This document shows positions 1-40,444 of a DNA stretch of 40,444 bases, one piece after another; position 1 is the first letter of the stretch, and every line of letters starts with the position of its first letter. The stretch comes from a virus, in the IMG/VR virus record IMGVR_UViG_3300025018_000052, positions 1 to 40,444 of that record, one strand, 5' to 3'. Both the position numbers and the translations under genes were made by a program. The notes under the pieces are model-generated. The model worked only from the letters and a program-made list of their open reading frames with translations. It was not told the DNA's origin and searched no databases.

Positions 1-127
1 ATGTTCCCACTTTAGATGCTCGGACCTGTTGTGAAAAATGTGTGCAAAGGGCTTCTAATCTTTTAATTCAAACAGATGGTCCCGAAAGGTAAAAAAAAAC
101 CGCAGGGGAAAATAGATAAAGTTAAAC
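1..127. repeat. Terminal direct repeat, copy 1 (identical to 40318-40444); marks circular closure or terminal redundancy
   Basis: Base-by-base comparison: atgttcccactttagatgctcgg...gataaagttaaac is present at both ends, including the same A9 run. Confidence 0.95.
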
Positions 128-576
128 TACTCAACGCTCTCCTTGATGGAAAAACTAAAGTTGCGGCCGCTAGAATAGCTGGTTCTAAGGCTAAAACAAA
201 ACAGTCTTTGTGTAAAATCACAGAAGACGCTAAAAAAGACCCACTGTTTGCAGAACTTCTTGAAAGGGGGATTCCGGATTCTCTTTTGGTTAAAAGAATA
301 AGAGACGGAGTTGACGCAAAAAGATCCATCTTAGTTGAAAATGTTACCATAAATGATAAGGGCCAAAGCATAAAAAAAACTAAAGTATTAAAGATCCCCG
401 ACTTGGGAATGAGACTTAATTACCTAGATCGAGTTATAGACTTAAAATCTTTAAAACCTCAAAAGAATGATACACCTGTAGGAGTCCCCGGAGCTGGAAT
501 CTTTATTAAAATAGATCAAATACTAAATGAGTATGGAACTTCAAAATCCGGAGGATCTCCAAACCCTTATAGGTGA
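76..576 (+). CDS. Putative terminase small subunit (N-terminal HTH-like, lysine-rich)
   Basis: 166-aa ORF directly upstream of and overlapping the large terminase. The N-terminus KVKLLNALLDGKTKVAAARIAGS looks like a helix-turn-helix. Size and position are typical of TerS. Confidence 0.55.
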   Translation: MVPKGKKKPQGKIDKVKLLNALLDGKTKVAAARIAGSKAKTKQSLCKITEDAKKDPLFAELLERGIPDSLLVKRIRDGVDAKRSILVENVTINDKGQSIKKTKVLKIPDLGMRLNYLDRVIDLKSLKPQKNDTPVGVPGAGIFIKIDQILNEYGTSKSGGSPNPYR

Positions 577-2318: not shown

Positions 2319-2705
2319 ATGGAGGCACAAATAACAATTCATAATGTTAAAACAGGAGACAGTGGTCCCAAAAGAGCGGTTTTGTCTATAAAGGCCTTTT
2401 TGTTAAATCAATATATAGAAACTCTAAGAACAGAGGCAAACAGCGTATTTGATAAGAACGCTTCCTCTCGTTTTGAGTCTTTTCCGTTGTTAAAGCTTGT
2501 AGATTCTTTTGATACTGGGGAGGAGTTTATTTATAAGACTGTAGAAGATCTTCCATCTGAAAGTGTTTTTAATTCTAAAAACGATCCTGTTTTATATATT
2601 TTGCCCAATGATTGTTCTGTTCACATGGGCCTCAATTTAATCGCTCCGGCTAAAAAAGTTACTCCGCATGCCGTAAAAGAAGAGGCACAAAATGAAAGGT
2701 CTTGA
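2319..2705 (+). CDS. Hypothetical protein between terminase and portal
   Basis: 128-aa ORF on the same strand as its neighbours, overlapping the next gene by 14 nt. No motif recognised. Confidence 0.5.
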   Translation: MEAQITIHNVKTGDSGPKRAVLSIKAFLLNQYIETLRTEANSVFDKNASSRFESFPLLKLVDSFDTGEEFIYKTVEDLPSESVFNSKNDPVLYILPNDCSVHMGLNLIAPAKKVTPHAVKEEAQNERS

Positions 2706-4692
2706 TTTTTACAATAAGAAGTGGGGAAAAGACTCGGATCAAAAGGTCCATAAAATCCTTTTGAGACTTTCTAAAATGAAAGAAAGAAGACATCACTTTG
2801 AAAAAATGTGGAGAAACTCTCTTTTGTCTTTCGTTGCTTTTGCTATATATGATAAAGACGCTGGCCCAGGAAAACTACAGTACGACATAGAAAAATCCCC
2901 AGAAATTCAATCTTATTACAACAATCTTATTGGTGGTGGATTTAAATATTCGGATGTTAGGTATCCTTTAGAGTTTTCTATTGTGATGAGAAAGATGGCA
3001 ACTGAAATTCCAAACTTCCCAGATTTAAGATGGATTGTTGAGGGGGAGAAAGATCAATCTCCAGCGGTCCTTTGGAAGCACGTCTACAACAGCATTACGT
3101 ATGATTCTGAATTAGATTATGAAACTTTTGAGCTATGGCTTGGAAAAAATGTTTTTGGAACTTCTATAAGTTGGTCACGTTTAGAAGAGAACACTTATGA
3201 AATTAAGGAGCCGTCAGTTGATGACAGTGGAAAAATATCTTGGAAAAACAAGAAGAAAACTGTTCATGAGTTCCAGTGTGATAGTGTGGACCTTAGAAAT
3301 GTGTTGATTGACGATAACTGTAAAAAGTCTTCACTTAAAGACGCTGATGACTGTGCAGTGTTTGAATACTTGTCGGAGGATAAGATTAGAAACCTTTACC
3401 CAGATATGCACTTTGGTGTGGACGTTCCAGAAGGAGTTGATCCTTCTAAGTGTTTTGCTCCAGTCTCAACTTCTCACACTTTTCAAGATCTTGATGAGTT
3501 GTACGGTGGGAATCAAAAACAGGTTTATGAACTCATTCATTATTACAATGTGAGAACAGATTCTTACGTGAGAATAATGAACGGCAAAGAGTTTTTACCG
3601 GAAACAGGAATAATTCAAAAAACTTACAATGGGAAAAAGATGTTACCAATAGCTTTTTTTGTGGATCACAAAATACCCGGAGTCCCTTATGGATATGGGG
3701 AGCCCGTGATAGCTAAGGCTTTTAGGGAAATAAAAAACAAAGTACGAAATGTTATTTTTGATGTTACAAAAAAAGTTGCAAAACCTACTATTGCGGTTGA
3801 TCCATTGTCTCCTTTTAAGGAAGAAAGCTATGTGTGGGGGCAGGATTTTATTAGAGTAGCCCCTCGGGACTTAATGCCTCTCAACATAACAGCCAATCTT
3901 GATCCGGCAATGAATTTAGATAAAACTACAGATAATGATGTAATTATTACTACAGGAATAAACATAACAGACACGGCAAATACTGGCTCAAATGAAACCG
4001 CTACAAAAACTGTTATCAGAAAAGAGTCTCAGGTTGCGGTTGTTGAGTTGGGAATGAGATTCAATACTTCCGTAGGATTAAGACGCTTTCATCTCATAAA
4101 CTCTTGCATTCTTTTGCTCTATATAAATACTCCAGTCTTCGATAGCGAGAATCAGAAACGGTCAATTGTTACTAAAAACGAAAAAATGTTTAGGTCAAAA
4201 GGTCCTAATAAATTTACTACAGAGCCTAAGAAAGGAGAGCATGTCTTCACTTTTAAAGGAGAGGATTTGAAATATACTTTCAAACCAATCCCCGAACTTG
4301 GAAATATCGCAGTAACTAAAACTCTCGAAAAAGGAATGTTCATGGAGGGATCTGAATTGTTATTCAGATATTCCCCAGAAGCATTAGACAAAGCTGGTCT
4401 AGCAGACTTCATTTGTCAACAATACAGCATTCCAGATACGGTTTTAGCACAAAAGAAAAAGACAATTTTAGATTCTGATCCGGACTTAATCGCACAGAAC
4501 GCAGGTGCGATATTACCGGAAGAGGTTAAACAAGCCAATATTAATAAAATAAATAATAATGCCCAGAGTTACGAACTTAGTCAAGCGATTAATTCGCCCG
4601 AAACTTTACTTGGAGGAGCAGGCCCAGAAGCAATGGGAGGAGCGTCAGGAGCACCTAGCAATGACACTTCTGGCTCTATACCAACAGTCTAA
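2692..4692 (+). CDS. Putative portal protein
   Basis: 666-aa ORF just downstream of terL and upstream of the scaffold and capsid genes, with a low-complexity Gly/Ala/Ser C-terminal tail. The call rests on synteny and size only. Confidence 0.55.
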   Translation: MKGLDFYNKKWGKDSDQKVHKILLRLSKMKERRHHFEKMWRNSLLSFVAFAIYDKDAGPGKLQYDIEKSPEIQSYYNNLIGGGFKYSDVRYPLEFSIVMRKMATEIPNFPDLRWIVEGEKDQSPAVLWKHVYNSITYDSELDYETFELWLGKNVFGTSISWSRLEENTYEIKEPSVDDSGKISWKNKKKTVHEFQCDSVDLRNVLIDDNCKKSSLKDADDCAVFEYLSEDKIRNLYPDMHFGVDVPEGVDPSKCFAPVSTSHTFQDLDELYGGNQKQVYELIHYYNVRTDSYVRIMNGKEFLPETGIIQKTYNGKKMLPIAFFVDHKIPGVPYGYGEPVIAKAFREIKNKVRNVIFDVTKKVAKPTIAVDPLSPFKEESYVWGQDFIRVAPRDLMPLNITANLDPAMNLDKTTDNDVIITTGINITDTANTGSNETATKTVIRKESQVAVVELGMRFNTSVGLRRFHLINSCILLLYINTPVFDSENQKRSIVTKNEKMFRSKGPNKFTTEPKKGEHVFTFKGEDLKYTFKPIPELGNIAVTKTLEKGMFMEGSELLFRYSPEALDKAGLADFICQQYSIPDTVLAQKKKTILDSDPDLIAQNAGAILPEEVKQANINKINNNAQSYELSQAINSPETLLGGAGPEAMGGASGAPSNDTSGSIPTV

Positions 4693-6420: not shown

Positions 6421-7389
6421 ATGAATACAATAGAGAATCTATCAAATATAGTAGACCCTACTATTACAGAAATCTTAGATGAGACTTCTGAACAACTCTC
6501 CTCGGAGTTGGCATACAAACAATTTAGTTATGAGGATTATATGCCAAAAGTTAAAGCTCCTGTTTTCTCTTCAACTTCTGGACTTACGCTTGCTCAATAC
6601 ACAGTAGAAGGCAAACCATACAGTCAAGAAGATAGAATTGAAGGCTATGATGTTTCAGTTGCAGTTAAAAAATATACCAAAGCGGTATCTTGGACGGAAG
6701 AATTGGTCCACTGGATTGAACAAGAAGACAAAGAAAGAGTTATGGATTTCAAGGAAGACGTTGAGGCAGTTGCAAATTCTGTATATGGCAGAATTGATAC
6801 AGAGGCTTCAAAAATGTTTTACTTAGCTCATGGCACAACTTTTCAAACTGGTGGAGATGGGGTTGCTTTAGCGGCTTATAATCATCCATCAAAAGAGCCT
6901 GGTGTAAGTACTCAAAGAAATATCTTTTCGACTACAGACTCACACTTACCTCCTACATATTCATCAATAGTGAAAGCAAAACAAAAGCTTCAAAGATTCT
7001 ATGATCTTAAAGGTGTTGAACTTAAAAGACCATTGAAATTTGAACTATGGCATTCACTAGAAATGGAAGATCAAGTAAACAGAGCTCTTAATGCAGATAG
7101 ACTTCCTGGCACAGAACTTAATGATCCAAACACTCTTAAAGGAAAAATTGTTCCAAAGGTCATAACTTATCAACCTTTTGGATATTCTACTTATTGGGCA
7201 TTGATTGCTACAGAAAGAGTTAGTAAGTCTTGCAAAATGTTGTGGGGCTGGAGACCACGATACAATAAAGAATCTAACTACATGAATGGAGCATTCTTTA
7301 GAGAAGGTTCTGTTTATTTCGCCCCAATGTTTAGATCTTGGCAGTTTGGAGTGTTCTCAAAAGGAGATGGATCTGTCATCGCAAATTAA
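6421..7389 (+). CDS. Putative major capsid protein
   Basis: 322-aa ORF in the canonical position after the scaffold and decoration genes, with a size consistent with an HK97-fold capsid protein. No diagnostic motif can be read by eye. Confidence 0.6.
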   Translation: MNTIENLSNIVDPTITEILDETSEQLSSELAYKQFSYEDYMPKVKAPVFSSTSGLTLAQYTVEGKPYSQEDRIEGYDVSVAVKKYTKAVSWTEELVHWIEQEDKERVMDFKEDVEAVANSVYGRIDTEASKMFYLAHGTTFQTGGDGVALAAYNHPSKEPGVSTQRNIFSTTDSHLPPTYSSIVKAKQKLQRFYDLKGVELKRPLKFELWHSLEMEDQVNRALNADRLPGTELNDPNTLKGKIVPKVITYQPFGYSTYWALIATERVSKSCKMLWGWRPRYNKESNYMNGAFFREGSVYFAPMFRSWQFGVFSKGDGSVIAN

Positions 7390-22900: not shown

Positions 22901-25900
22901 ATATTTTAGTATTTAAAAAGAATACTACTGCGGACGACAACCTTTTAGAGCAACGTCTTGATAGTTTAGCAGGAGATTCTTATTTTAAAGAAAATAAATC
23001 AAAAATTTTAGGAGAAACAAAAGAAAGAAAATCAAGATTTGGAAAGATGGAAGTGTATGTTACTGGGAATGAGGATGTTTTAGACAACATAGTATTAACA
23101 GAGTCTCAAGATAACGGACCGAAAGTTTTCAAGGAAGTTACTGAAAAGATAACTAAAAAGAAAAAAGCACTTGAAGGCACCGAATCAACAGCTAAAGTAG
23201 AGGAATACTCATTAAGAGAGGAAACAGGTCAATTGTTTAGCACAATGCACCTTACAGACGCTGATAAGAATATTTGGAGGAATAAGTCGGCTGATGGAAG
23301 TCTCGTTATCAAAAACTTAACAGGAGCTGAAATTAACACTCTTAATATATTTAACGGAAAATACTTTGATGACTTTGATTATTTACAGGGAAATATTTAC
23401 GAAAAAATAGACGCACTTGAAAATGAAAACATTTCTGAAGAGAAAAAAGACGAGCAAAGAGCAAAGCTTGAGAAAATTTTACCTAAGCCAAAGAAATTAG
23501 AGAACATCTATCTCAATCCTTTAGGGGATTTTGCTTCTAGTTTTAAATATGAAACCTCCACGGCTAGATCTGATGTAGAGACTCTTACTTTAAAAGAAGG
23601 ATTTCTTGATTATCTTAGAGGACTCCCTAGAGACGCTTTCGCACCTTCTGATATGTGGGAGACTATGGGGTATGTGAGGGGGGACCGAGTCAACACAAGA
23701 GGGGATGTTGTTTTGGCAAATACTATTAAGAAGAGAAGAAAACATGTTGCGGAAAAATTGTTTCCTAAATTTTTAGAAACTCTTGATAAAGACACTAAGA
23801 CTAAAATAGAAGATCAGTTCAATAAAGAAAAAAATGGTTTTGTTTCCCCGGATTACAAGAAGGTACCATTATTCGTAGATGGTCTTGATATGACTTTTGG
23901 GGGAAGGGGCTTGAAGATTGGGGAATATAAGATAGATTCTATTGGCTTTCTCTCAAATAGAGGAACAGGAATCAATGCAAATGGTGTGGGATTGGGTAAA
24001 ACAATGATGGCCATAATATCAACCGCTCAAGATGTTCAGAAGGGTTGGTATAAAAGACCTTTGTTTATTGTTCCAAAAGGAGTTTATAATAAATGGATTG
24101 AAGAGATCCGTTTACTTTTCCCTAAACAGAAAGTCGTAGGGCTTGGAAACTTGGGTGTGGGGTATGGCATAAAATCTGCGGACGATATTAAAGCTAAGAT
24201 CAATGATGGAGATTTTACTGTAATGACTTATGAGGCTATTGCTCAATTAGGTTTTAAACCAGAAACTCAATCAAGTCTACTTGGGGAAATTAATAATGCT
24301 TATACGGAAGTGGGAAATAAAACAGAAAGGGCAAGAGCAAAAAAAATGGAGCAAATTCAAGATATTTCAGGAAAAGGAAAAATCCGGGCGGAAATAAAAG
24401 TTGAGGATTTGGGCTTTGATAATTTAATCGTAGATGAGGCTCATAAGTTTAAGAACATTTTTTCAAGAGCTAAGGAAAACAAAGACAGCGACAGCAAAGC
24501 ACAATCGGGTAGATGGGGAGGAATAACAGGGCAGTCTTCCGCAAGGGGGGTTAAAATGTGGTTATTATCTCAATATGTTCAAAATAAAAACGACGGAAGA
24601 GGAGTTAAGTTATTGACAGCTACACCGTTCACAAACAACCCCTTGGAGTTTTACAATGTATTGTCTCTTGTTGCGATGAAGGACATGAAGGCAATGGGTG
24701 TAGATAACATTAATACCTTTATGGATACTTTTTTGAAGACCACTAAAAAGTATGTTGTAAAATCTGGAGGTAAATATGATTTGGCGGATGTTGTTGAAGA
24801 TTGGCAGAACAAGGATATTTTAAAGGGGCTTATAAAAAGATATATAGATTTCAAGGATGGAGAAGATTATGGAGTTATAAGGCCTACAAAATTTAAAAAA
24901 GACTACAGATTTAACGCTACAAAACAGCAACTTGAGTATTTGCAAAAAGCACAAGAACTCCTAGATCCCAAACTAAAAAACAAAGGGGGATCACTTATGT
25001 ATATAGATGAAGCAAAAAAAATAACACTTTCCCCTTATCTTTCAAGATACTACAACGGTCCATTGCCTACTCCAAAAGAATTTGTGGAATCTTCTCCAAA
25101 ACTAATGGGAATGATGACGATGATCAAGGCGAACAGAAAAAAAACAGGACAAGTTATTTATTTTCCTTATGAGGTTGATCAAATGCCTCTACTTCGAGAA
25201 TACCTAGTTGATGTGTTAAAATATAAACCATCGGAGGTTGGTATTATTCACGGGAAAATTGATGACAACGTAAGGGAAAGAGTCAAGAAAGATTTTAATT
25301 CAGGAAAAGTAAAGGTAATTATAGGATCAGACGCAATTAAAGAAGGGGTAGATTTACAAGAGAGGTCTACAGATCTATATCTTACATCTTACCCCTGGAC
25401 GCCTACAGACGTGATACAGGTTGAGGGTCGAATACATAGACAGGGAAATATTTATAAAAATGTAAGAATTAATTTTTTATCTTTAAAAGATTCTGTAGAT
25501 TCGTTTCTTTTTCAGAAGCTTGATACAAAAACTAAAAGACTTGCAAATGCAGACGCTATAACTCAAACACTTGAAGGGGACAACATGGACTATGAATCAA
25601 TGACATCTGATCTTATTACAGATCCAGCCTTTAAGCTTCAAGTGAAAACGGCAATTAAAAAAGAAAGGGCAGACACTAAAATTAATGGACTTAAAAGTGA
25701 AATAGCTTTACTGGAAGAACAGACTAAGAAATATAAGGAAGCAGAGGCGGAGATACAAGTTACTCAAGAGTGGCTTGATGATCCACGCAATGCCGAGTCT
25801 TGGAATATGGATAATTACAGAAAAAAGAACAAGAAATCAACTAAAACTCTTGAAACGCTAAAAGAAAGGAATGTTGATCCAGAAGTTAATCAGGCTAGAA

Positions 25901-28900
25901 TATCTGAACTCGAAAAAGTTTTAGAGGCTACAATTGCTAAAAACAAAGAATCAGAAGAACGGCTAAAAGAAGAATCGAAAAATTTACCGGAATTTATTGA
26001 GAAGGATCCGGAGCCAAACGACTTTAAGGCACTTGAAAAACAGCTTCTTGAAGAGAATAAAACTTTTATCGTTTTAAAAGGGAAAGATGAAGATCAGACC
26101 GTCAAGGCTTCAAAAGCTTCTTCCTTAGAAGAGAACGTTTTGCCTTCGGTCATGATGGAATCCAGCATAGAAAGTGAACCTTTAACAGGGGCGGATGTTC
26201 CGTCCTTAAAGAGTTCAGAGACCTTGCCGGATGAATCTTTGGAGAGCATTGATGAAAAATCAAAGACTCTTTCTTCCCAGAGAATGAAATTTCTTGAGAG
26301 ATTTGACATGGGCTATGGATTAGTTGACACTACAAGGATAGATGATTTTATTAGCTTTGTCAATACTAATGTTTCAGAATATGATCAGTCCGTCAAAGAT
26401 CTTACTATAAAAACTCAATCAGAGGCATATTTTTACAGGGTAAAAGAATCTAAGAGTGTGGCTTCAAAGCTTAAGAGAAAGAGAGAAAAGACACTTGGCA
26501 CTTTAAATGATATGATTGGAGGGACTATTGTTACTGAAAATATTGATAATGTTTTAGGTGAATACAAAAAAGACAATTCCGAAAAGAGTATTGATGATAT
26601 GAGGACTCGTCCTTCTATGTGGGGATATGATGGTGTTCATCTTGAGAAAGAATTATCTTCCGGGATGTTTACGGAGATACAAGTACATACAAGAGAAAAA
26701 CTTTACCAAAAAGAATACGCTCATACTATTTACGAAAAATACAGGGAATATTTTGAAAGCAATGAGGTAGTTGAACTTTCAGATCAAGCCTTAAAGGATA
26801 AGATGGGCGAGGCGGTATATTCTGAATATTTAAAAGATATTCAACTTTCTCGTGATGTTTATGCTGGGATAGTTCCGGTCCCTCAAGAATTTATCGACAA
26901 GGCAAATGAGAGAATTAATAAAAACAAGATTGTTTTAGAAGAGGAAGTATCAACAGAAAACAAAACGGAAAGCGTAATGACAGGCTCGGCACAAACAGTT
27001 GATGGATTAAAACCCGTCAAGGTATCAAAAATAACTAAGGACTTATCCTTAGTTGATGTTGGTGGTAAAGAGATGTTGACGGAGGCTAAGACAAGTGAAG
27101 AAATCAAAGAGGAAGTATCTAGTTTTATTGAAGATCAATCAAATATAAAAGAAGGGGATGTTGTGGAAATTAATGAAAAATCCCCGGATTTATCCCCCAT
27201 GGAAAAGCAGGCGGTTGTCGTTTCCGGAAATAAAGATATGTCGGTTGTAGAGGTTGATGGAGGCTTTAAGGTTGTCGAAAGCAAGGACTTAAAACCGCTA
27301 GAAATATCTGATGAAATTAAAGAGCCTAAAAAACCTAAAAGACTTAAAGTTGCAAATGAAAAGACAGCGATAGAAGATTTACCGCCGTCTCCTCCAGAAA
27401 GTGATTTACTTGAAACAGATGGTCCGGATGATGGAACTGTAGATTTTGATTTAACAAAGTTTGAAAGAATGAGAGTTATTGTTCAAGATAAAGCAATAGG
27501 GCTTGATAAAGCTCAAAAGATTATGGGAGAAGGGAAAAATGTTCAAGAAGATGTTGATATGTATATGGAGTACGAGCTTTATTCTGGAGCAGTAACAGCG
27601 GCTATAGAAAAATTTGAGAGAAACGAATGGAAGCCATTACAAGATGAACTCGTAAAATTTACCAGTCTCTCCCCAGATCATTCACAGCTAATACAGAATT
27701 ACTTGTGGCTTTCACATGCTGAAGAACGGAATAAAAATCACTATGATGGGGCGGCTGGAATAACGACAAAAGAAGCGAGGATGAAATTGAAAGAGTTAAA
27801 GCAATTACCGCAGTTCCCAGAAATGCAGAAAATAGCACAACAATTCCAATCTCTAGCGAAAAAACTTCCCGAATATTTGTATAAAAACGGGATGATAAAG
27901 CAGAAAGAGTATGAATCACTTTTGACATTGTATAAAAATTATATTCCTCTACAAAGGATATTACCAGACAATGGCGACTTTAGTCAAGCTTTAGGAATAG
28001 GAAAAGGGTTTGACACTCGTGGAACTGACATAAAAAAGGCTAAGGGAAGTGATTTAGAGGTTGCAAACATTTTAGAGTCAATTCGTTTGAACTGGGAAAG
28101 GGCTATTATAAGGGTCCATAAAAACAATGTAGGAAAGACGGTTTATAAGTTTGCTAAAGACTATAGTAAACTATCTTTGTTTAAATTGGTTCGTGGAAAA
28201 CTTAAGCTAATGGAAGTTGATGGGGATATAATAAGGACTATTGAGCCTCCTTCTGGGGATAATATCCTTACTGTAAAAATTGATGGAGTTCAAAAATACA
28301 TAAAAATAACAGATCCTACAGTTGCTAATGCTTTAAAGAATCTTGATTCTCAACCTATGAATGTTGCAATGAGGACTCTTTTATCTTTTACAAGATTTTA
28401 TTCAATGATCAATACTTCATTGAATCCAGAGTTTATCATAAGCAATGCAATTAAAGATATTCAGACGGCCTCTCTTAACACTTCTAAAGAGTTTGGGATG
28501 TTTGGCATGGCTCGTAATGCAAAAGTTTTTCCAGAGGCATATAAAGGAGTATTTGACGCCTTGAGGGGGAATGATACCACTATGGCTAAACTTTATAATC
28601 AGATGAGGGAACTCGGAGGTACTACGGGTTATTATAATTTATCGAACAGAGAAGAAATCGCAAACAAAATTAGAGAAGGAGAAGACGCTTTGACTCTTAA
28701 TAGTGTAGGTAAACTAAAAAGTGGTGGAAAAAAAGTTCTTGAGTTAATAGACTTTATCAATGATGTTGTAGAAAATGGAACACGTCTTGCGGTTTATAAG
28801 GTTGCTATTGATCAAGGTTTTTCTCCAAAGAAAGCCGCTCAATTAGCGAAAAATGCAACTGTTAATTTTAACAAGAAAGGAACTATTGGTCCGGGCCTTA

Positions 28901-29997
28901 ATGCTCTTTACGCATTTTCAAATGCTTCAATACAGGGATCTGCGAATGTAATTAAAACTCTTTCAAATCCTAAGAGCTTTGCAAAAATTACAACATTAAT
29001 ATCTGTTGTAAGTGCATTACTTCAATCTTGGAATAGGGCTATTGATGAGGAAGGGTATGAAAAAATAGACTCGTCGATCCGTGAATCAAACTGGGTATTT
29101 ATGGTTGGAGGAGGGAATTACATCAAATTAGGGCTTCCTTATGGATATAATGTAATAAAAGTTACGGCAGATAATATTTATGAGCTTTCTATAGGAAAGA
29201 CTGTTGCTATGGATAGTTTTAAATCTGTCTCGGGGGCTATGATTAATGCTTATAATCCTGTTGGTGGAGCTGATTTATTCAATGCTTATGTGCCTACATT
29301 CTTTAGGCCAATACAAGAAGTTTATGTTAATAAAGGTTGGCACGGAGGGAATATAGCCCCAATGAACATGACTGGGGTTAAGGAGAGTTTAAACTATTCT
29401 GAAAATGAAAATCCGATCTTCGTTAATTTGTCTAAGTATATGAGCAAATTTACAGGTGGAAGTTATGGAAGGAGGGGAGTTTTGGAAGTTTCTCCAGCTG
29501 GGATTGAATATTTATGGAATCAATATACAGGTGGTGTGGGACGGTTTATAATGGGAAATGCTAAGACTGTAGTCAATCTTGCAACTGATCCAGAAAACAT
29601 TGAGACAAAAGATATTCCTTTTTGGAGAAAAGTTGTTGGAAAGGTTGATGTCGAAAGGTACAACAGAAATTATATTTATGATATAATTGATAAATCTAAA
29701 AAGACTCCTTTAACAGAAGACGAAAAGATGGATTTCATGAGGGTATTAAAAGAAGAAGGGGAAAACAAAAGAATAACAATGAAAGAGGCTAAAGACTATA
29801 TGAATAAAGCTAAAAGCGGACAAGAAGACCTTACACAGACTAAAAAAGTTGTAGATTATATTGAGCGTCAAAATTGGTCCGAGGAAAAACTTAATCAGTT
29901 TCTTAATGAAAAACTAACAGATAACTCTTGGACCAAAGCTCAAGGATTAGGAACATTCACTAAAACCCAAATAAAGATGATTAGGAGCGAGTTGTAA
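19909..29997 (+). CDS. Giant polyvalent protein (3362 aa): N6-adenine DNA methyltransferase, SNF2-family helicase, RelA/SpoT-like nucleotidyltransferase and a large C-terminal module
   Basis: A single uninterrupted ORF. MTase at about nt 22340-22925: YYTPP, motif I LEPSAGVGRF, motif IV NPPYG. SNF2 helicase at about nt 23960-25480: GVGLGKT, VDEAHKFKN, LLTATPFTNNPLEFYN, QVEGRIHRQGN. RSH-like domain at about nt 26422-26760: RVKESKSVASKLKRK, NDMIGGTIV, WGYDGVHLE, TEIQVHT, AHTIYEKYR. Confidence 0.85.
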   Translation: MVLNWKDLQKKKDQLVKTVNVIGTGLAETQKQADIKKSAKKITDVRTTKQYPGVPITKITNTPKPLYGNTSLSPSMAENVLINKGITPSPTNVKNFSIKEDPTKGVLPSSLKNDNRSAKQKQEDSERAKEYYNFYNTNIRRAKEAWDMGNATVLGIKSGTILRAKKLIPTSIRAIAENINMDPFGQLDMFGKRNMSELEQAREEYSVMKGETEDVYYNSTLARNPLYNWAMDTIKDVEIEDEDIRRLATEGKSELVKEVFNIAQSSASFLATVAATVITKNPTALAAFGTSLDSLDTYNEARKTQSPSGALMSVSADASVTFALEKIGWDALMDTWSKPLAKQISDKIPLFKNITLKAPVATAITGNAVSSGITEGVQEVVQTMWQNAVAKFGYDHTRGIMDGVVEAFLLGSVLGGGATAVYQTKQAIEDKENINKAKEELKSKLGVDDTQAQALASYLHSFTRTESGMFKNKVDSMFKEKRTANYKGLQDAGSRPGIDIPGELPVPEKVTTAPVVSKEKEYKPTRKVPEAQAYNNSDFFYELDYHGERVTTDGVVLEFNSTVSAPKNKNTSGRVLTQENIDRIVPEGDLKPLSTKAVYTNGASLNGKGKQKLELVWMGEPSSKVGEGVVIKKQIFDYIKGKYPLASFKYNGSSDSSIAVFEGEKIVSLFMPLTNNFQNTQLGEESELYWRAEELTGNSNVDRIESDLKDNTNDTSSKRQISSPSGVSGEQSGGVYADNQQSPESGQRTPSQRERILGADRERSGTSKGGLNKKAKELLDSGKKPEDFTDEDIELLKSYSGMGGSGEAGRGLLDEYYTPPKVIDKMWALARKHGFTGGSVLEPSAGVGRFIDRGPDENVKYTALEIDDTSSKIAKIVLGKKADVKQMPFENLFVTETGKAIEIENTYNLIIGNPPYGEHRGYYKGLGEESKISKYEDYFIKRSLDLAKDNGLVVMVVPSGFLKTTVSYSKKQIAKSGELVEAYRLPEKIFDKTSIGTDILVFKKNTTADDNLLEQRLDSLAGDSYFKENKSKILGETKERKSRFGKMEVYVTGNEDVLDNIVLTESQDNGPKVFKEVTEKITKKKKALEGTESTAKVEEYSLREETGQLFSTMHLTDADKNIWRNKSADGSLVIKNLTGAEINTLNIFNGKYFDDFDYLQGNIYEKIDALENENISEEKKDEQRAKLEKILPKPKKLENIYLNPLGDFASSFKYETSTARSDVETLTLKEGFLDYLRGLPRDAFAPSDMWETMGYVRGDRVNTRGDVVLANTIKKRRKHVAEKLFPKFLETLDKDTKTKIEDQFNKEKNGFVSPDYKKVPLFVDGLDMTFGGRGLKIGEYKIDSIGFLSNRGTGINANGVGLGKTMMAIISTAQDVQKGWYKRPLFIVPKGVYNKWIEEIRLLFPKQKVVGLGNLGVGYGIKSADDIKAKINDGDFTVMTYEAIAQLGFKPETQSSLLGEINNAYTEVGNKTERARAKKMEQIQDISGKGKIRAEIKVEDLGFDNLIVDEAHKFKNIFSRAKENKDSDSKAQSGRWGGITGQSSARGVKMWLLSQYVQNKNDGRGVKLLTATPFTNNPLEFYNVLSLVAMKDMKAMGVDNINTFMDTFLKTTKKYVVKSGGKYDLADVVEDWQNKDILKGLIKRYIDFKDGEDYGVIRPTKFKKDYRFNATKQQLEYLQKAQELLDPKLKNKGGSLMYIDEAKKITLSPYLSRYYNGPLPTPKEFVESSPKLMGMMTMIKANRKKTGQVIYFPYEVDQMPLLREYLVDVLKYKPSEVGIIHGKIDDNVRERVKKDFNSGKVKVIIGSDAIKEGVDLQERSTDLYLTSYPWTPTDVIQVEGRIHRQGNIYKNVRINFLSLKDSVDSFLFQKLDTKTKRLANADAITQTLEGDNMDYESMTSDLITDPAFKLQVKTAIKKERADTKINGLKSEIALLEEQTKKYKEAEAEIQVTQEWLDDPRNAESWNMDNYRKKNKKSTKTLETLKERNVDPEVNQARISELEKVLEATIAKNKESEERLKEESKNLPEFIEKDPEPNDFKALEKQLLEENKTFIVLKGKDEDQTVKASKASSLEENVLPSVMMESSIESEPLTGADVPSLKSSETLPDESLESIDEKSKTLSSQRMKFLERFDMGYGLVDTTRIDDFISFVNTNVSEYDQSVKDLTIKTQSEAYFYRVKESKSVASKLKRKREKTLGTLNDMIGGTIVTENIDNVLGEYKKDNSEKSIDDMRTRPSMWGYDGVHLEKELSSGMFTEIQVHTREKLYQKEYAHTIYEKYREYFESNEVVELSDQALKDKMGEAVYSEYLKDIQLSRDVYAGIVPVPQEFIDKANERINKNKIVLEEEVSTENKTESVMTGSAQTVDGLKPVKVSKITKDLSLVDVGGKEMLTEAKTSEEIKEEVSSFIEDQSNIKEGDVVEINEKSPDLSPMEKQAVVVSGNKDMSVVEVDGGFKVVESKDLKPLEISDEIKEPKKPKRLKVANEKTAIEDLPPSPPESDLLETDGPDDGTVDFDLTKFERMRVIVQDKAIGLDKAQKIMGEGKNVQEDVDMYMEYELYSGAVTAAIEKFERNEWKPLQDELVKFTSLSPDHSQLIQNYLWLSHAEERNKNHYDGAAGITTKEARMKLKELKQLPQFPEMQKIAQQFQSLAKKLPEYLYKNGMIKQKEYESLLTLYKNYIPLQRILPDNGDFSQALGIGKGFDTRGTDIKKAKGSDLEVANILESIRLNWERAIIRVHKNNVGKTVYKFAKDYSKLSLFKLVRGKLKLMEVDGDIIRTIEPPSGDNILTVKIDGVQKYIKITDPTVANALKNLDSQPMNVAMRTLLSFTRFYSMINTSLNPEFIISNAIKDIQTASLNTSKEFGMFGMARNAKVFPEAYKGVFDALRGNDTTMAKLYNQMRELGGTTGYYNLSNREEIANKIREGEDALTLNSVGKLKSGGKKVLELIDFINDVVENGTRLAVYKVAIDQGFSPKKAAQLAKNATVNFNKKGTIGPGLNALYAFSNASIQGSANVIKTLSNPKSFAKITTLISVVSALLQSWNRAIDEEGYEKIDSSIRESNWVFMVGGGNYIKLGLPYGYNVIKVTADNIYELSIGKTVAMDSFKSVSGAMINAYNPVGGADLFNAYVPTFFRPIQEVYVNKGWHGGNIAPMNMTGVKESLNYSENENPIFVNLSKYMSKFTGGSYGRRGVLEVSPAGIEYLWNQYTGGVGRFIMGNAKTVVNLATDPENIETKDIPFWRKVVGKVDVERYNRNYIYDIIDKSKKTPLTEDEKMDFMRVLKEEGENKRITMKEAKDYMNKAKSGQEDLTQTKKVVDYIERQNWSEEKLNQFLNEKLTDNSWTKAQGLGTFTKTQIKMIRSEL

Positions 29998-30391
29998 GAA
30001 ATTCTGAAACAAAACCAATTGCCTCATCCGCACCAAAACATATACGAGCTTCGACATTTTCGATAGTGTTTATTGCATTGATCCAGTTTTTTTGATCTTC
30101 TTTAATTGTGTATTTTTTTATTCTTTTCATTTCAACAAACAACATACAAGCTTTTTTTGTTTTTGATTGTTTAGCTGGGATTATTACTAATAAGTCTGGA
30201 AGGCCAGAGCGTACACCCATTGCTATGTTTTCAGTCAATTGCCATCCCGATGGGGTCCATGTGCTATTAGGAATTGCCGTAAATTTTAGTTTTTTAACTT
30301 CTAGCCATTGAACAAAAGCTTTTTGTTCATCCGCCTCATAAGGAATTACTCGGTTAGGTACACTTTTTTGTTTTCTTTTAAAGTAAGGCAT
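29981..30391 (-). CDS. VRR-NUC domain nuclease (PD-(D/E)xK superfamily)
   Basis: 136 aa. EADEQKAFVQWLE ... GVRSGLPDLLVI ... MLFVEMKRIKK ... QKNWINAI matches the VRR-NUC layout (E, PD, ExK, Q..W). Confidence 0.8.
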   Translation of the reverse strand: MPYFKRKQKSVPNRVIPYEADEQKAFVQWLEVKKLKFTAIPNSTWTPSGWQLTENIAMGVRSGLPDLLVIIPAKQSKTKKACMLFVEMKRIKKYTIKEDQKNWINAINTIENVEARICFGADEAIGFVSEFLTTRS

Positions 30392-37121: not shown

Positions 37122-38081
37122 TTAAAATTTATTAAATTTATCTTCGATGGATTCAACTGTAGATCCTTCCGGTTCTTTTCCGAGCAAAGGCTTGATGTTG
37201 TAGTACAAGAAACGAATAGACGAACATCTTCCTTTTGTCCAACTATTTTGCAGTAATTCTTTAAATGCTTTCTCAAAAATTTCTTTTCCGTGTTTCTCGT
37301 AGAGTAAGACCAAGTGCCGTCCGTACATCCTTTGCGTTTTTGAGGGGTCCGCAAAATAAGTCAAACCAAGTCTACGACGAATCGCTTCCAACATCAAGGT
37401 TATTTTTTCATTTCCAAAAATCGCCGGCCGGGGGGGTAGGGGGGGTGTTTTTGAATCCGATACATTTCCTGTAAGAAAAAAAATTTTAAGAGGTCGCCAG
37501 TGTATTAATATATACATAGCGTTAGCTATGGATATATTAATACATGTATTTAATATATATATATATAAATACATTACAGCGTTTTTATTTTTTACGAATT
37601 GCCCGGTAAATCTTAAAAAAATGACAAGCTCTTTTGGGCTAAGAGCCTTCAATAACTCAATCGGTGGGGGGGTAAATCTTGAATTTAAAAACATCCTTTT
37701 TGTGTTTCCATAGCCAATAATCTTTACTTTATTTGACTGAATCTGATTTTTGTTTTCACTTTTAGAGGGTGGGGGGGTAAATCTTGAATTTTTGACGGTG
37801 TTTTTTTCTTTTGTAGCCTTCAATAACTCAATCGGTGGGGGGGTAAATCTTGAATTTTTAATAGTATATAAATTGCCTTTTTTCTCTACATTAAAGGCAA
37901 ACTCTGTATTAGCAGACCTTTCTTCTGTTAAGTAAAGCCATTTTTTAAGCAAAAACTTTGAAATACCTGTTTCCCTAGAGGCTTTTGTAATTGACAGCAT
38001 GTTGTTTTGTTTTTGTGCACACAAAACAAGCCCTATAATGAGCCAGTACTGGGAATCGAGAATGGAGGTTTTATGATTCAT
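37122..38081 (-). CDS. Putative replication initiator/organiser whose coding sequence contains the iteron array
   Basis: 319 aa, the first gene of the minus arm, immediately upstream of dnaB. HTH-like N-terminus SITKASRETGISKFLLKKW. The peptide repeat NSRFTPPP(IELLKA) occurs three times and is encoded by the DNA repeats. The central segment is translated from an AT-rich tract. Confidence 0.55.
   Translation of the reverse strand: MNHKTSILDSQYWLIIGLVLCAQKQNNMLSITKASRETGISKFLLKKWLYLTEERSANTEFAFNVEKKGNLYTIKNSRFTPPPIELLKATKEKNTVKNSRFTPPPSKSENKNQIQSNKVKIIGYGNTKRMFLNSRFTPPPIELLKALSPKELVIFLRFTGQFVKNKNAVMYLYIYILNTCINISIANAMYILIHWRPLKIFFLTGNVSDSKTPPLPPRPAIFGNEKITLMLEAIRRRLGLTYFADPSKTQRMYGRHLVLLYEKHGKEIFEKAFKELLQNSWTKGRCSSIRFLYYNIKPLLGKEPEGSTVESIEDKFNKF
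37645..37686. repeat. Iteron-like 42-bp repeat, copy 1
   Basis: gccttcaataactcaatcggtgggggggtaaatcttgaattt, identical to 37816-37857. Confidence 0.9.
37768..37791. repeat. Iteron-like repeat, core-only copy
   Basis: ggtgggggggtaaatcttgaattt is identical to the 3' 24 bp of the 42-bp repeat. Confidence 0.85.
37816..37857. repeat. Iteron-like 42-bp repeat, copy 2
   Basis: Identical to 37645-37686. Confidence 0.9.
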
Positions 38082-38100
38082 GTTTATTTTTACGCTTTTA

Positions 38101-38129
38101 TTATTAATCGAATTTAAAAATTTGACAAT
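38101..38129 (-). promoter_or_regulatory. Candidate leftward promoter (TTGTCA-17-AATAAT) for the replication arm
   Basis: Read on the reverse complement. Its -35 overlaps the -35 of the rightward promoter by 5 bp. The -10 is weak and the leader to the ATG at 38081 is very short. Confidence 0.25.
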
Positions 38130-38151
38130 TGAATTTTAAAAAAATAGAATG
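38123..38151 (+). promoter_or_regulatory. Near-consensus sigma70-type promoter (TTGACA-17-TAGAAT) facing groES and the morphogenesis arm
   Basis: ttgaca at 38123-38128, a 17-nt spacer, and tagaat at 38146-38151, about 140 nt upstream of the groES start. Confidence 0.5.
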
Positions 38152-38169
38152 AAATTACAAAATAAGTCT

Positions 38170-38214
38170 CAAAAACCCCAACGTGTTGCTATAAAAAACT
38201 TCCTGGGGTTTTTG
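38170..38214 (+). terminator. Terminator-like leader hairpin downstream of the rightward promoter
   Basis: Perfect 11-bp inverted repeat caaaaacccca ... tggggtttttg with a 23-nt loop. The 3' arm itself ends in five T (ttttt, 38209-38213) and is followed by gaaaataaaaaaa. Confidence 0.35.
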
Positions 38215-38228
38215 AAAATAAAAAAACT

Positions 38229-38261
38229 CTTGATTTTTTCCAAAACAAGAATAAAATCAAG
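38229..38261 (+). promoter_or_regulatory. 9-bp perfect inverted repeat (CTTGATTTT-N15-AAAATCAAG) just upstream of groES
   Basis: Read directly. It sits 29 nt before the groES ATG and could be an operator or an RNA hairpin. Confidence 0.35.
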
Positions 38262-38289
38262 TCAACTTTTAAACATTTAAAATTTTTTT

Positions 38290-38586
38290 ATGGAAAATAA
38301 AAATGGCTACCGTCCATTGGGACGCAGAGTAGTGGTCAAACGCCTCCCAAAGAATTCTGGGGGCTTTGTTCTTTCGCATGAGTTGCAGAATGAAGGTCAT
38401 CCGGACGTGGGAATCATTACCGCAGTGGGAGACCTTCTCCCCCGAGATGTCGTCCGTGGGATTGAGGTGGGAAAAACAGTTTATTACACAAGATTTTCTC
38501 CAGTCAAAATACCAATGGAAGGGGAAGACGAAGAGGTAAATCACTATTTTATTGAGGTCAAAAATATTTTAGGCATTAAACTTTAA
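38290..38586 (+). CDS. groES: GroES/Cpn10-like co-chaperonin
   Basis: 98 aa. YRPLGRRVVVKRL, mobile-loop-like PKNSGGFVL, GIITAVGD, VGKTVYY, and YFIEVKNILGI follow the Cpn10 pattern. Confidence 0.8.
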   Translation: MENKNGYRPLGRRVVVKRLPKNSGGFVLSHELQNEGHPDVGIITAVGDLLPRDVVRGIEVGKTVYYTRFSPVKIPMEGEDEEVNHYFIEVKNILGIKL

Positions 38587-38599
38587 ACAAAAAAATTAC

Positions 38600-40240
38600 A
38601 TGGAATCAAAAAAAATAACTGGAGGTGTTGAGGCAAAAAAACAAATACTTAGAGCCGTAAAAGAAATGGCTGATGTAGTCGGGTCAACAATGGGATCACG
38701 TGGCAGAAATGTTTTACTTGAGTCTTTAGCACGCCCCGGGAAACCGGAAGTCGTAAACGACGGTGTTAAAATTGCACGAGAGTTTTTTTATTTTGATCCC
38801 GTTGAAAATATGGCAGTTCAATTGATAAAAGAGGCTTCTATCCGCACTAATGATGACGCAGGAGACGGCACGACATGTGCAACTGTTCTTGCTGGAGCGA
38901 TTGTAGAAGAAGGCTATAAACACATTATCAACGGAGCTTCTCCGGTGCTTTTGAAACATGTTTTGTGTGAAGAGGCTAAACAGGTTCAATCAGAGCTTCA
39001 AAAGCTTTCTGTAAAAATTAAAGACGCAGAGCAATTGATTCAAGTTGCTCAAATATCAGTTCAAGATGAGAAACTCGGAGCAATGATCGGGTCCGCAATG
39101 TTCAAGTGTGGCAAAGACGGAGCTATTTCGGTTGAGGATAATGTCAATGATGAGATTGTAGTTGAAGAATCTAAGGGAGCAAGATTTGAAATGGGGCACG
39201 CTGGAGGAGTTATTTCTGATCACGATAGGTTTGAACACAAAGGCGAGAACGTGCGGTTTTTAGTTATGAACTACAACATTGAGGATCACGAATTTGATAA
39301 TAGATGGCTACCATTCATTAATAAACTTATTAAGTTAGATGAAAAAGGCCATGTAAGCAAAGTTGAAGTTCCGGCTTTAGTTATTATAACGGAAAAACTT
39401 CCATTACGAGTTTTGCAATTTATTAACGACCCCCATAATTCGTCTCTAGTCAAAATTACATGGGTTCGCCCTCCTTCTTTTGGAGACAAAAGGACCGAAA
39501 TTTTGAAAGACTTTTGTGCACTTACTGGTGCAAAACTTGTGGATAAAGAAGACGCAGTTTACATCAACCGCATTTCTGTAGAGGAATTAGGACAAGCTAA
39601 AACGGTTCACATAACAAGATCTCACACCACTGTTTCTTTAGAAGAAGATTCTGTTTTATTGAAAAACAGAATAGAAACTATTAAGACTCAAATAGAAACA
39701 AGCAATTCAGCGCTGGAAATTGAAAACTTGAAAAAAAGATTAGCAGTTTTAACTGGTGGAATGGCAACTGTAAAAGTTGGTGGTTCAACCGGTGCAGAAG
39801 TGAAGGAGCTAAAGCTTAGGATTGAAGACGCTATCAACGCTTCAAGAAGTGCTATGGAAGCTGGACTTGTTCCGGGTGGTGGAGTAGCTTTATTGGACGC
39901 CGTAAAGGCAGTTGAGGCTAACGGATTGTCTACCGTTGGTTTTTCTTTTGTTCAATCTTTTTTAAGCCCATTCCGTAAAATATTGGAAAACGCAGGATAT
40001 GCGAATGAGGCGATGGTTGATTTTATTAAAAAGAGAGAAAAGGGCGAAGGAATCAATGTTACCAACTTTGAGACGGGAGACATGATAAAAATGGGAATAG
40101 TTGATCCCATTAAAGTTATTTCTCGTGCACTTGCAAATGCAGTCTCTGTTGCTGGTCTTTTATTCACAGCAGATTTTTCCTTAACTATAGAAAAAAACAA
40201 CGGGCTTGAAACAATTAAAAAAATATTAAAAGATGGTTAA
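38600..40240 (+). CDS. groEL: GroEL/Cpn60-like chaperonin
   Basis: 546 aa. GSRGRNVLLE, VVNDGVKIAREF, ENMAVQLIKEASIRTNDDAGDGTTCATVLAGAI, PPSFGDKR, LTGGMATVKVGG, and VPGGGVALL. It lacks the C-terminal GGM repeat tail. Confidence 0.92.
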   Translation: MESKKITGGVEAKKQILRAVKEMADVVGSTMGSRGRNVLLESLARPGKPEVVNDGVKIAREFFYFDPVENMAVQLIKEASIRTNDDAGDGTTCATVLAGAIVEEGYKHIINGASPVLLKHVLCEEAKQVQSELQKLSVKIKDAEQLIQVAQISVQDEKLGAMIGSAMFKCGKDGAISVEDNVNDEIVVEESKGARFEMGHAGGVISDHDRFEHKGENVRFLVMNYNIEDHEFDNRWLPFINKLIKLDEKGHVSKVEVPALVIITEKLPLRVLQFINDPHNSSLVKITWVRPPSFGDKRTEILKDFCALTGAKLVDKEDAVYINRISVEELGQAKTVHITRSHTTVSLEEDSVLLKNRIETIKTQIETSNSALEIENLKKRLAVLTGGMATVKVGGSTGAEVKELKLRIEDAINASRSAMEAGLVPGGGVALLDAVKAVEANGLSTVGFSFVQSFLSPFRKILENAGYANEAMVDFIKKREKGEGINVTNFETGDMIKMGIVDPIKVISRALANAVSVAGLLFTADFSLTIEKNNGLETIKKILKDG

Positions 40241-40409
40241 AATTGAAATAACTTGTGATTATTGCGGACACATGTGGTTTGCAGAAAGAAGGGGAGATGG
40301 AGCCTTAAACAAATTCTATGTTCCCACTTTAGATGCTCGGACCTGTTGTGAAAAATGTGTGCAAAGGGCTTCTAATCTTTTAATTCAAACAGATGGTCCC
40401 GAAAGGTAA
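40233..40409 (+). CDS. 58-aa zinc-ribbon-like protein spanning the circularisation junction
   Basis: Manual translation gives MVKIEITCDYCGHMWFAERRGDGALNKFYVPTLDARTCCEKCVQRASNLLIQTDGPER (CxxC ... CxxC). The start overlaps the groEL stop. The last 92 nt are duplicated at 1-92, and the stop overlaps the TerS-like start by 17 nt. Confidence 0.45.
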   Translation: MVKIEITCDYCGHMWFAERRGDGALNKFYVPTLDARTCCEKCVQRASNLLIQTDGPER

Positions 40410-40444
40410 AAAAAAACCGCAGGGGAAAATAGATAAAGTTAAAC
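40318..40444. repeat. Terminal direct repeat, copy 2 (identical to 1-127)
   Basis: Base-by-base identity with the first 127 nt. Confidence 0.95.

Follow-up and report, generated by a model that had tools for sequence, protein, structure and literature searches.

Why should a phage with a genome of about 40 kb encode both a chaperonin ring and its lid? The question is raised by the IMG/VR virus record IMGVR_UViG_3300025018_000052, whose 40,444 nucleotides (positions 1 to 40,444 of the record, here called the window) carry, close to their right-hand end, a groES-like gene followed by a groEL-like gene. An earlier note, made from the sequence alone, had drawn attention to this pair. The reading that we favour, with reasonable though not high confidence, is that the region is a phage-lineage-specific group I chaperonin operon, in which a gene for a GroES lid and a gene for a GroEL ring ATPase open a tightly packed late operon. 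The first 127 bases of the window recur as bases 40318–40444 (an overlap that the earlier note had already recognized), so that the contig is circular, with a unique length of 40,317 bp; the groES–groEL pair makes up about 4.8% of this 40.3-kb genome.

Identity of the two proteins

What are the two gene products? The larger matches the Pfam family Cpn60_TCP1 (PF00118) at 165.6 bits (gathering score 34.3; E 2.3e-48), the NCBIfam subfamily models PRK12849 (408 bits; cut-off 352) and PRK00013 (400.8 bits; cut-off 397), and the PHROG 5725 profile 'chaperonin groEL' (E 1.7e-108). Its AlphaFold2 (AF2) model (predicted local distance difference test score, pLDDT, 89.9; predicted template-modelling score, pTM, 0.82) has the equatorial–intermediate–apical fold, and Foldseek aligns it with the GroEL chains 1mnf, 8bl2 and 2cgt at template-modelling (TM) scores of 0.81–0.86. 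The motifs from which the earlier note had recognized the protein, DGTTCATVLA, PPSFGDKR and VPGGGVALL, are indeed at residues 89–98, 291–298 and 424–432, and the coordinates that it had given for both genes are exact (Table 1). The ATP-site residues D52, D87, G88, T89, T90, D398, G414–G416 and D495 (E. coli numbering, used throughout for GroEL) are kept in the window protein and in all 33 members of the clade described below, and I454 and I493 are likewise kept in the window protein. T91 is replaced by Cys, and K51 by Asn (N51 is also common among the cellular matches). The inter-ring residues are variable: R452 is kept, and the window changes E461A, S463E and V464A are not constant among close relatives.

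The protein nevertheless fails the NCBIfam equivalog model for cellular GroEL, TIGR02348 (398.3 bits, against a cut-off of 582.1), and on these profile scores it belongs to the subfamily as a divergent member and falls short of an orthologue-grade GroEL. That it is divergent, and that it has no GGM tail, had been noticed before, and both points are borne out by alignment and by the missed cut-off. Scores against solved bacterial GroELs are 280–312 bits, compared with 104 bits against gp146 of phage EL (6tmt).

The smaller product is recognized by Pfam Cpn10 (PF00166; 30.7 bits, gathering score 21.1, E 3.3e-7) and by PHROG 3188 'co-chaperonin GroES' (E 3.1e-6), and has matches in the PDB to a Cpn20 chain (E 3e-6) and a Cpn10 chain (E 5.5e-4), all in keeping with the identity first proposed for it; the NCBIfam GroES models score far under their cut-off (best 24, against 109). 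Among the related phages considered in the next section, the orthologues in L004, L005, L007 and L010 pass the Cpn10 threshold, and that in L008 is below it at 16.8 bits. The top 28 PDB matches of the GroES model in Foldseek are all Cpn10, GroES, Hsp10 or T4 gp31 (probability 1.00; TM 0.5–0.6). We have relied on profile and structural evidence because this protein is too divergent for pairwise search: tblastn against a phage collection gave no matches, and a word-indexed search of 5.8 billion proteins detected just four relatives, all of them within the same phage group. The motifs PLGRRVVVK (residues 9–17) and GGFVL (residues 24–28) are present as the earlier note had them, and the second of these is the core of the mobile loop, with its conserved Gly and three hydrophobic residues retained. 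Across the clade this GG-hydrophobic core is kept in a mobile loop three residues shorter than that of E. coli GroES (in the window GroES the shortening is on the N-terminal side of the loop), and the roof-hairpin region is four residues shorter.

A phage lineage with its own chaperonin

The same circular genome has been assembled independently three times (JGI 3300008255, ENA ERZ27293386 and Logan SRR6053076; 40,163–40,458 bp), and the identical GroEL, with the same neighbours, is present on all three contigs. The genome is that of a tailed phage, since it has genes for a large terminase (TerL) and for portal-like and capsid-like proteins, and also encodes peptidases of the M23 and CHAP types along with a polyvalent protein of 3,362 aa.

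Close relatives come from other samples, with GroELs 64% (L005), 66% (L013) and 51% (L004) identical to that of the window. In all three a leftward arm of DnaB-helicase and replication genes is opposed to a rightward arm that runs groES, groEL, a Cys-rich open reading frame (ORF) of about 58 aa, a small terminase (terS) candidate, TerL and portal. A GroES-like ORF is also found upstream of GroEL in members further removed (L007, L008/9, L010 and L014/15), where GroEL comes directly before the genes for the terminase, the portal and a 310-aa capsid protein. Taking the eight distinct clade genomes together, a GroES-like ORF is upstream of GroEL in every one, and GroEL immediately precedes the terminase, portal and capsid (310–322 aa) genes in every one; moreover, the capsid candidates can be aligned between the close and the distant sub-groups. 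From this conserved order and the alignable capsids it follows that the chaperonin and the head module have travelled together: groES, groEL and the head module are vertically co-inherited across a clade of uncultured phages of roughly 30–43 kb.

How distinct is this clade? Searching the 5.8 billion proteins with the window GroEL gave 33 clade members at 39–66% identity, all on contigs of 43 kb or less, and the next matches were cellular GroELs at 36–38% identity. The 33 were monophyletic in 100 of 100 neighbour-joining (NJ) bootstraps when analysed with 87 cellular-type GroELs and Salmonella GroEL, and the GroEL of the Flavobacterium phages of the genus Elemovirus was sister to them in 96 of 100 (a placement in which long-branch attraction is possible). 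At least 586 viral GroEL loci are present in IMG/VR, and a single one of them (L026, 40% identity) belongs to the clade.

In one distant member, the ORF immediately upstream of GroEL (L014, 5418–5678; L015, 3470–3730) matches Pfam Acb2_Tad1_hairpin, a family of anti-CBASS/Thoeris sponges, and the GroES-like ORF is about 0.7 kb further upstream; an anti-defence gene may thus be embedded in the chaperonin operon of this phage.

A remodelled apical face and C-terminal tail

Four characters separate clade from cellular GroELs: the apical loop, the length of the segment equivalent to E. coli 222–250, V263/V264, and the C-terminal tail. In the apical loop, D-R-G-Y-L-S-x-Y-M/F has become E-G-x-x-x-G-G-V, one residue shorter, in all 33 clade members, whereas D[RKN]G[YF].S.Y[MF] is kept in all 87 of the cellular-type matches. 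The 222–250 segment is 41–51 aa long in the clade, compared with 29–30 aa in cellular GroELs, and in it helix H is preceded by a conserved EDHEF motif and followed by an inserted hairpin (in the AF2 model of the window protein, strands 244–246 and 252–255 follow a helix at 229–241). V263 and V264, in helix I, are polar or deleted across the clade. In terms of the classic binding residues, sequence alignment gives Y199G, Y203G, F204V, V263N and V264D for the window GroEL, with R197 deleted, and the positions of L234, L237 (as I) and L259 stay hydrophobic. Finally, the GGM repeats are absent from all 33 members, and an acidic, amphipathic tail, predicted to be helical, is conserved in their place.

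In a 50%-identity representative library, non-canonical GroELs have likewise commonly lost the GGM tail and the canonical apical loop. The same library contains two proteins, P0127 and P0129 (1,078 and 1,081 aa; 399 and 338 bits to the window GroEL), each with two GroEL-like stretches, which are either tandem-fused double chaperonins or merged gene calls.

The GroES loop and GroEL helix I vary together by sub-group, FVL being found with LQFI, and LKL or MKL with IM.M. Together with the remodelled apical face, this covariation (which involves two independent groups only) hints that GroES and GroEL are a co-evolved pair.

The chaperonin genes at the head of the late operon

The ORF map agrees with the earlier note in placing groES and groEL at the start of the rightward arm for packaging and morphogenesis, and in the order of what follows: a 58-aa Cys-rich ORF, a 166-aa ORF, TerL, the portal and a 322-aa capsid candidate. 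Some of the labels were less secure. The 'terS' at 76–576 is so called by position only, the matches of the 'capsid', to Phage_capsid_4 and Mu gpT, are all sub-threshold, and the 'promoter' corresponds to consensus matches that are not above those in shuffled sequence.

From groES to terL there is next to no intergenic space (a gap of 13 nt is followed by overlaps of 8, 17 and 50 nt), and on the strength of this packing the chaperonin genes are almost certainly co-transcribed with the packaging genes. The 58-aa ORF occupies the same position in L004, L005 and L013 (56–83% identity), and similar-sized ORFs occupy that position in more distant clade members. Its product has no family match in Pfam, NCBIfam or PHROG profile searches, and may be a small terminase partner or a regulator. 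The 166-aa ORF has no family match of its own, and its positional equivalents in L007 and L010 match GP3_package and Terminase_2. TerL is matched by 1,664 phage records in tblastn, those listed being mostly annotated as terminase large subunit. The portal orthologue of L004 has a weak match to P22_portal, and the positional equivalent in a more distant phage, L019, matches SU10_portal. As for the capsid candidate, three of seven family members match Phage_capsid_4 and four of the seven match Mu gpT, and the window protein itself has a weak match to a major capsid protein in the PDB (E 0.048).

SU10_portal and SU10_adaptor matches in the capsid-sharing relatives L019 and L021, along with the P22_portal match in L004, suggest that the morphology of the group is probably podovirus-like.

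Table 1. Features of the chaperonin region and the genes downstream of it, in window coordinates
Feature	Coordinates	Strand	Remarks
Divergent intergenic region, 208 bp	38082..38289	.	Separates the rightward late arm from the leftward replication arm (whose first gene is 38081..37122, -); ORF map
Promoter-like site TTGACA-17-TAGAAT	38122..38150	+	Consensus match at 11 of 12 positions; TTGACA kept in L005
Hairpin, A-run before and U-run after	38169..38215	+	Terminator- or attenuator-like; between the two promoter-like sites
Promoter-like site TTGATT-16-TAAAAT	38230..38257	+	Ends about 33 nt before the groES start; CTTGATTTTTT...AATAAAAT kept in L013
groES-like co-chaperonin gene, 98 aa, 11.0 kDa	38290..38586	+	Pfam Cpn10, PHROG 3188 and PDB matches; AF2 model
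Mobile-loop core GGFVL	38359..38373	+	Aligns with E. coli GroES G23-G24-I25-V26-L27 (alignment to Salmonella GroES)
groEL-like group I chaperonin gene, 546 aa, 59.5 kDa	38600..40240	+	Starts 13 nt past the groES stop
Phosphate/Mg-binding motif DGTTCATVLA	38864..38893	+	E. coli D87-A96
GHAGGV in place of the canonical apical RGYLSPYF loop	39194..39211	+	R197, Y199, Y203, F204 lost
Apical expansion: EDHEFD motif, helix H (RWLPFINKL), inserted beta-hairpin (KGHVSKVEVP)	39281..39373	+	Clade-specific
C-terminal tail LETIKKILKDG, predicted helix	40205..40237	+	Replaces GGM repeats; tail end ...EKNNGLETIKKILKDG
58-aa Cys-rich ORF (CxxC...CCxxC)	40233..40409, wrapping to 1-92	+	8-nt overlap with the groEL stop (ATGGTTAA)
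166-aa ORF, putative small terminase	76..576	+	By position only; 17-nt overlap with the 58-aa ORF across the circular junction
Large terminase TerL, 576 aa	527..2257	+	50-nt overlap with the preceding ORF; PHROG 38407 (1.6e-22), PHROGs 24361 and 6681
Portal candidate, 666 aa, 75 kDa	2692..4692	+	Weak PHROG 156 match
Major capsid candidate, 322 aa, 36.7 kDa	6421..7389	+	Phage_capsid_4, 22.5 bits (below the gathering score of 27)

What might the chaperonin do?

If the region is indeed a chaperonin operon, the GroES and GroEL homologues would assemble into a folding cage of ring and lid, produced along with the late proteins, that could fold one or more phage structural proteins independently of host GroEL and GroES. 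A working machine of ring and lid is argued for by the conserved ATPase site and the GroEL fold, by the retention of hydrophobic residues at L234, L237 and L259, by a GroES loop that is intact, and by the fact that the two genes strictly occur together; gene position and operon packing argue for synthesis with the late proteins. The remodelling of the apical face and the exchange of the C-terminal tail suggest that the phage GroEL may pair preferentially with its own GroES. Which proteins might be the clients? There may be a dedicated one, which was one of two suggestions in the earlier note. The capsid candidate would fit best, because at 36.7 kDa it could be accommodated in a GroEL/GroES cavity, and the 75-kDa portal and 66-kDa TerL could not; capsid proteins as chaperonin clients have precedent in the literature (PMC5649160). 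In the close sub-group the GroEL sequences have moved apart faster than those of the capsid, with 64% against 89% identity for L005 and 51% against 74% for L004. This is the reverse of the behaviour of cellular GroEL, and suggests a narrowed set of clients.

Several observations weigh against this interpretation. With five of the nine classic apical binding residues replaced, canonical binding of GroES and of substrates cannot be assumed from the alignment. The GroES model is of moderate confidence (pLDDT 72.5, with one of five models confident). The promoter assignment is built on consensus matches, which are not enriched (seven were found, against 5.3 ± 2.5 expected from shuffles, two of the seven being kept in relatives), and the sigma-70 consensus may in any case not apply if the host is a member of the Bacteroidota. 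Most pertinent to the proposed client, phages such as L020 and L021 share a homologous capsid and the order of the head module, yet neither GroEL nor GroES is present in the stretches of about 20 kb fetched around their head genes, which include 4.6–5.5 kb upstream of the terminase genes. It would follow that the capsid family (215 detectable members, the capsids of the phages without a chaperonin gene in the stretches fetched scoring 356–434 bits against the family profile) does not intrinsically need a phage chaperonin. An obligatory coupling of capsid and chaperonin is thereby weakened, and the chaperonin looks like an acquired accessory of one sub-lineage rather than a requirement of the capsid fold. 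(L019 is uninformative about chaperonin absence, its contig starting about 1 kb upstream of its terS.) L020 also has a large block of glycosyltransferase and methyltransferase genes beside its head module.

A bolder version of the proposal, which we regard as possible but doubtful, is that the two proteins are a private, orthogonal pair: a GroEL with a rebuilt face for GroES and substrates, an extra apical hairpin and an acidic, amphipathic tail in place of the GGM cavity floor would have co-evolved with a shortened GroES so that each works with the other alone, and the pair would fold the capsid of these podovirus-like phages of about 40 kb. Were this so, head assembly would be independent of the host chaperonin, and the view that ties complete chaperonin operons to phages with large genomes would be contradicted.

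Alternatively, though we consider it unlikely, the pair might be a general-purpose accessory chaperonin that adds to or replaces the host's folding capacity, and that provides stress buffering or a wider host range. It would then have many clients among the phage proteins, such as tail proteins, lysins and domains of the 3,362-aa protein, and would be dedicated to none of them. This would be in keeping with the occurrence of homologous capsids in phages for which no chaperonin gene was found next to the head genes, with the presence in this genome of the 3,362-aa multi-domain protein and several large tail proteins, and with the suggestion by Marine et al. (PMC5649160) that chaperonins may let a virus fold more diverse proteins. 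Yet the fixed place of the genes, heading the packaging and head operon in eight of eight genomes, points to virion assembly, and the faster divergence of GroEL than of the capsid in the close sub-group fits a narrow range of clients better than a broad one.

It is improbable, in our judgement, that the two homologues act apart, with GroES retargeting host GroEL (like T4 gp31) and GroEL acting alone as a holdase or lid-less chaperonin (like EL gp146, which does not bind GroES: PMC7185714). Loss of Y199, Y203, F204, V263 and V264 could weaken the binding of GroES to the phage GroEL, but the two genes co-occur, adjacent or nearly so, in every clade genome examined, the window GroEL is far nearer to bacterial GroELs than to gp146 in the bit scores given above, and hydrophobic residues are retained at L234, L237 and L259; the joint change of mobile loop and helix I between sub-groups also speaks for interaction, although with two independent groups it is suggestive only.

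The notion that the segment is host DNA, whether through a chimeric join in assembly (the danger that the earlier note itself had pointed out) or through very recent capture of a host groESL operon, we reject as exceedingly improbable, for although the gene order is canonical and the identity to cellular GroELs of Clostridia and Peregrinibacteria (36–38%) is little under that of distant clade members, the three assemblies of the same circle, the synteny in relatives from other samples, the 100/100 monophyly of a clade confined to contigs of 43 kb or less, the absence of the clade-specific insertions and tail from all 87 cellular-type matches, the lack of Shine–Dalgarno motifs before groES and groEL as in the rest of the genome, and the restriction of detectable GroES relatives to four proteins of the same phage group all mark these as phage genes.

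The region upstream of groES

The 208-bp region that separates groES from the divergent replication gene contains no ORF in our map and is partly kept in L005, L004 and L013. Of the two promoter-like sites in it (Table 1), that at 38230..38257 would be the best candidate for a late-operon promoter; the promoter motif TAnnTTTG does not occur in the groES upstream region. Between the two sites is a strongly predicted hairpin (–18.6 kcal/mol, z = –5.1 in RNA folding, with none of 200 shuffles folding as well), whose CCCC...GGGG stem is also found in L005 and L013. It may belong to a short leader or small RNA, or it may serve as a bidirectional terminator or as an attenuator for the late operon.

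The rest of the genome and the possible host

A quarter (25%) of the genome is taken up by the single ORF for the 3,362-aa polyvalent protein (19909–29997, + strand), in which N6-adenine methylase/Eco57I and SNF2/ResIII helicase domains, a weak RelA/SpoT-like region and an LPD38 domain can be recognized. Its counterpart in L005 (partly fetched, with a called product of 1,615 aa) matches Helicase_C and LPD38. The polyvalent protein is probably either ejected or used in anti-defence. The two arms of the genome converge at 29981–29997, where the end of this ORF (29997) overlaps by 17 nt the last leftward ORF (30391..29981), leaving no intergenic terminator region.

What might the host be? The G+C content is 36.9%, and 28 of 29 long ORFs are without a Shine–Dalgarno motif and have A/T-rich leaders. 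The leaders suggest a host that makes no use of Shine–Dalgarno sequences, and these features are compatible with a host in the Bacteroidota, the phylum to which the hosts of the cultured Flavobacterium and Cellulophaga phages with GroEL and GroES belong. There are no tRNA genes in the window. A scan of 185,579 species genomes with TerL gave distant matches only, to metagenome-assembled genomes (MAGs) labelled Ruthenibacterium (39%) and 'uncultured archaeon' (33%), and neither of these MAG stretches has GroEL in the part fetched. The best TerL match in the phage collection (31%) was to a Manatee Spring podovirus MAG, which is without GroEL, and the portal had no matches in that collection. An alternative genetic code can be rejected, as TGA serves as a stop codon three times; the standard code applies.

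Comparison with known phage and cellular chaperonins

The earlier note had considered a complete chaperonin pair to be unusual in a phage, since T4 brings a lid alone and phage EL a ring alone, but this is contradicted both by the literature and by the databases. GroES was present on 133 of 337 (40%) GroEL-carrying virome contigs in the survey by Marine et al. (2017; PMC5649160), who defined clades with the orders GroES>GroEL and GroEL>GroES, noted that Cellulophaga phage phi38:1 has both genes, and proposed that complete operons are typical of viruses with larger genomes; Bracher et al. (2020) also report that some phages have both homologues. RefSeq genomes of the Elemovirus phages have adjacent annotated groEL and groES genes. 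Among the best 80 of the IMG/VR viral GroEL loci, 41 have a GroES-like ORF within 4 kb (upstream in 40 of these), and 64 of the 80 do not show the complete cellular signature, in which a DRGY-type loop is combined with a GGM tail. In the phage collection, 229 records match the window GroEL, although some of the top-ranked ones appear to be bacterial or unannotated rather than phage genomes. Phage GroES/GroEL operons are therefore a documented and common kind, and the window pair is a new lineage, not a new strategy. That lineage is set apart by its set of apical and tail changes, its invariant first place in the late operon and its small genome; what is new here, and only mildly so, is the lineage, the small genome and the fixed position heading the late operon.

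With the GroES>GroEL phages of Marine et al., the window phage shares a group I chaperonin with its co-chaperonin, the order groES then groEL, a GroEL phylogenetically distinct from cellular ones, and the capsid as proposed client. In their GroES clusters 15 and 18, however, the mobile-loop Gly has become Asn or Ser, a small heat-shock protein (sHSP) gene is often found upstream, and there is a link with polA, whereas in the window the Gly is kept (GGFVL), no sHSP gene is upstream, and no polA was seen. Their complete operons were tied to larger genomes, unlike that of the 40.3-kb window phage. Judged by the published description of those clusters, the window pair is probably of a different lineage.

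The Elemovirus phages (e.g. NC_062741, about 60 kb) and phi38:1 are cultured Bacteroidota phages with both GroEL and GroES. The Elemovirus GroEL, like that of the window, has no GGM tail and has the T91C change, but the two are just 32.5% identical, and the Elemovirus protein keeps R197, Y199 and F204 and has no apical insertion. Its gene precedes groES, among genes for tail-fibre and hypothetical proteins, and not ahead of the terminase. In phi38:1 a short ORF separates the two genes, instead of the 13-nt gap of the window.

E. coli GroEL and GroES share with the window pair the three-domain fold, the ATPase residues, the GroES mobile loop and the operon order, and the GroELs are 36% identical. 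They differ in the remodelled apical loop of the phage protein (R197, Y199, Y203 and F204 lost; V263N and V264D), its 13-residue apical expansion, its C-terminal tail, acidic and amphipathic where that of E. coli has GGM repeats, and the shorter mobile loop and roof hairpin of the phage GroES.

Pseudomonas phage EL gp146, like the giant-phage chaperonins of OBP and AR9, is a phage-encoded protein of the Cpn60 family. Its identity to GroEL is about 22%, it comes without a co-chaperonin and shows no binding to GroES, and it apparently works without encapsulation (PMC7185714). The window GroEL is not of this type, both in its greater similarity to bacterial GroELs and in having its own GroES.

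A complete GroES/GroEL operon, then, is carried by a 40-kb phage, and not solely by large-genome phages. We know of no phage chaperonin pair bringing its own GroES that has been studied biochemically. The lineage described here is a compact and complete example, with a 59.5-kDa ring protein, an 11-kDa lid, clear derived features, and a candidate client encoded about 6.5 kb downstream, and it could be a test case for a chaperonin that specializes in few clients. A further parallel is with T4 gp31 and RB49 CocO, which likewise provide a phage lid of GroES fold, there for the folding of the capsid protein (T4 gp31 being among the Foldseek matches of the window GroES): T4 supplies the lid only and uses the GroEL of its host, whereas the window phage supplies the ring too.

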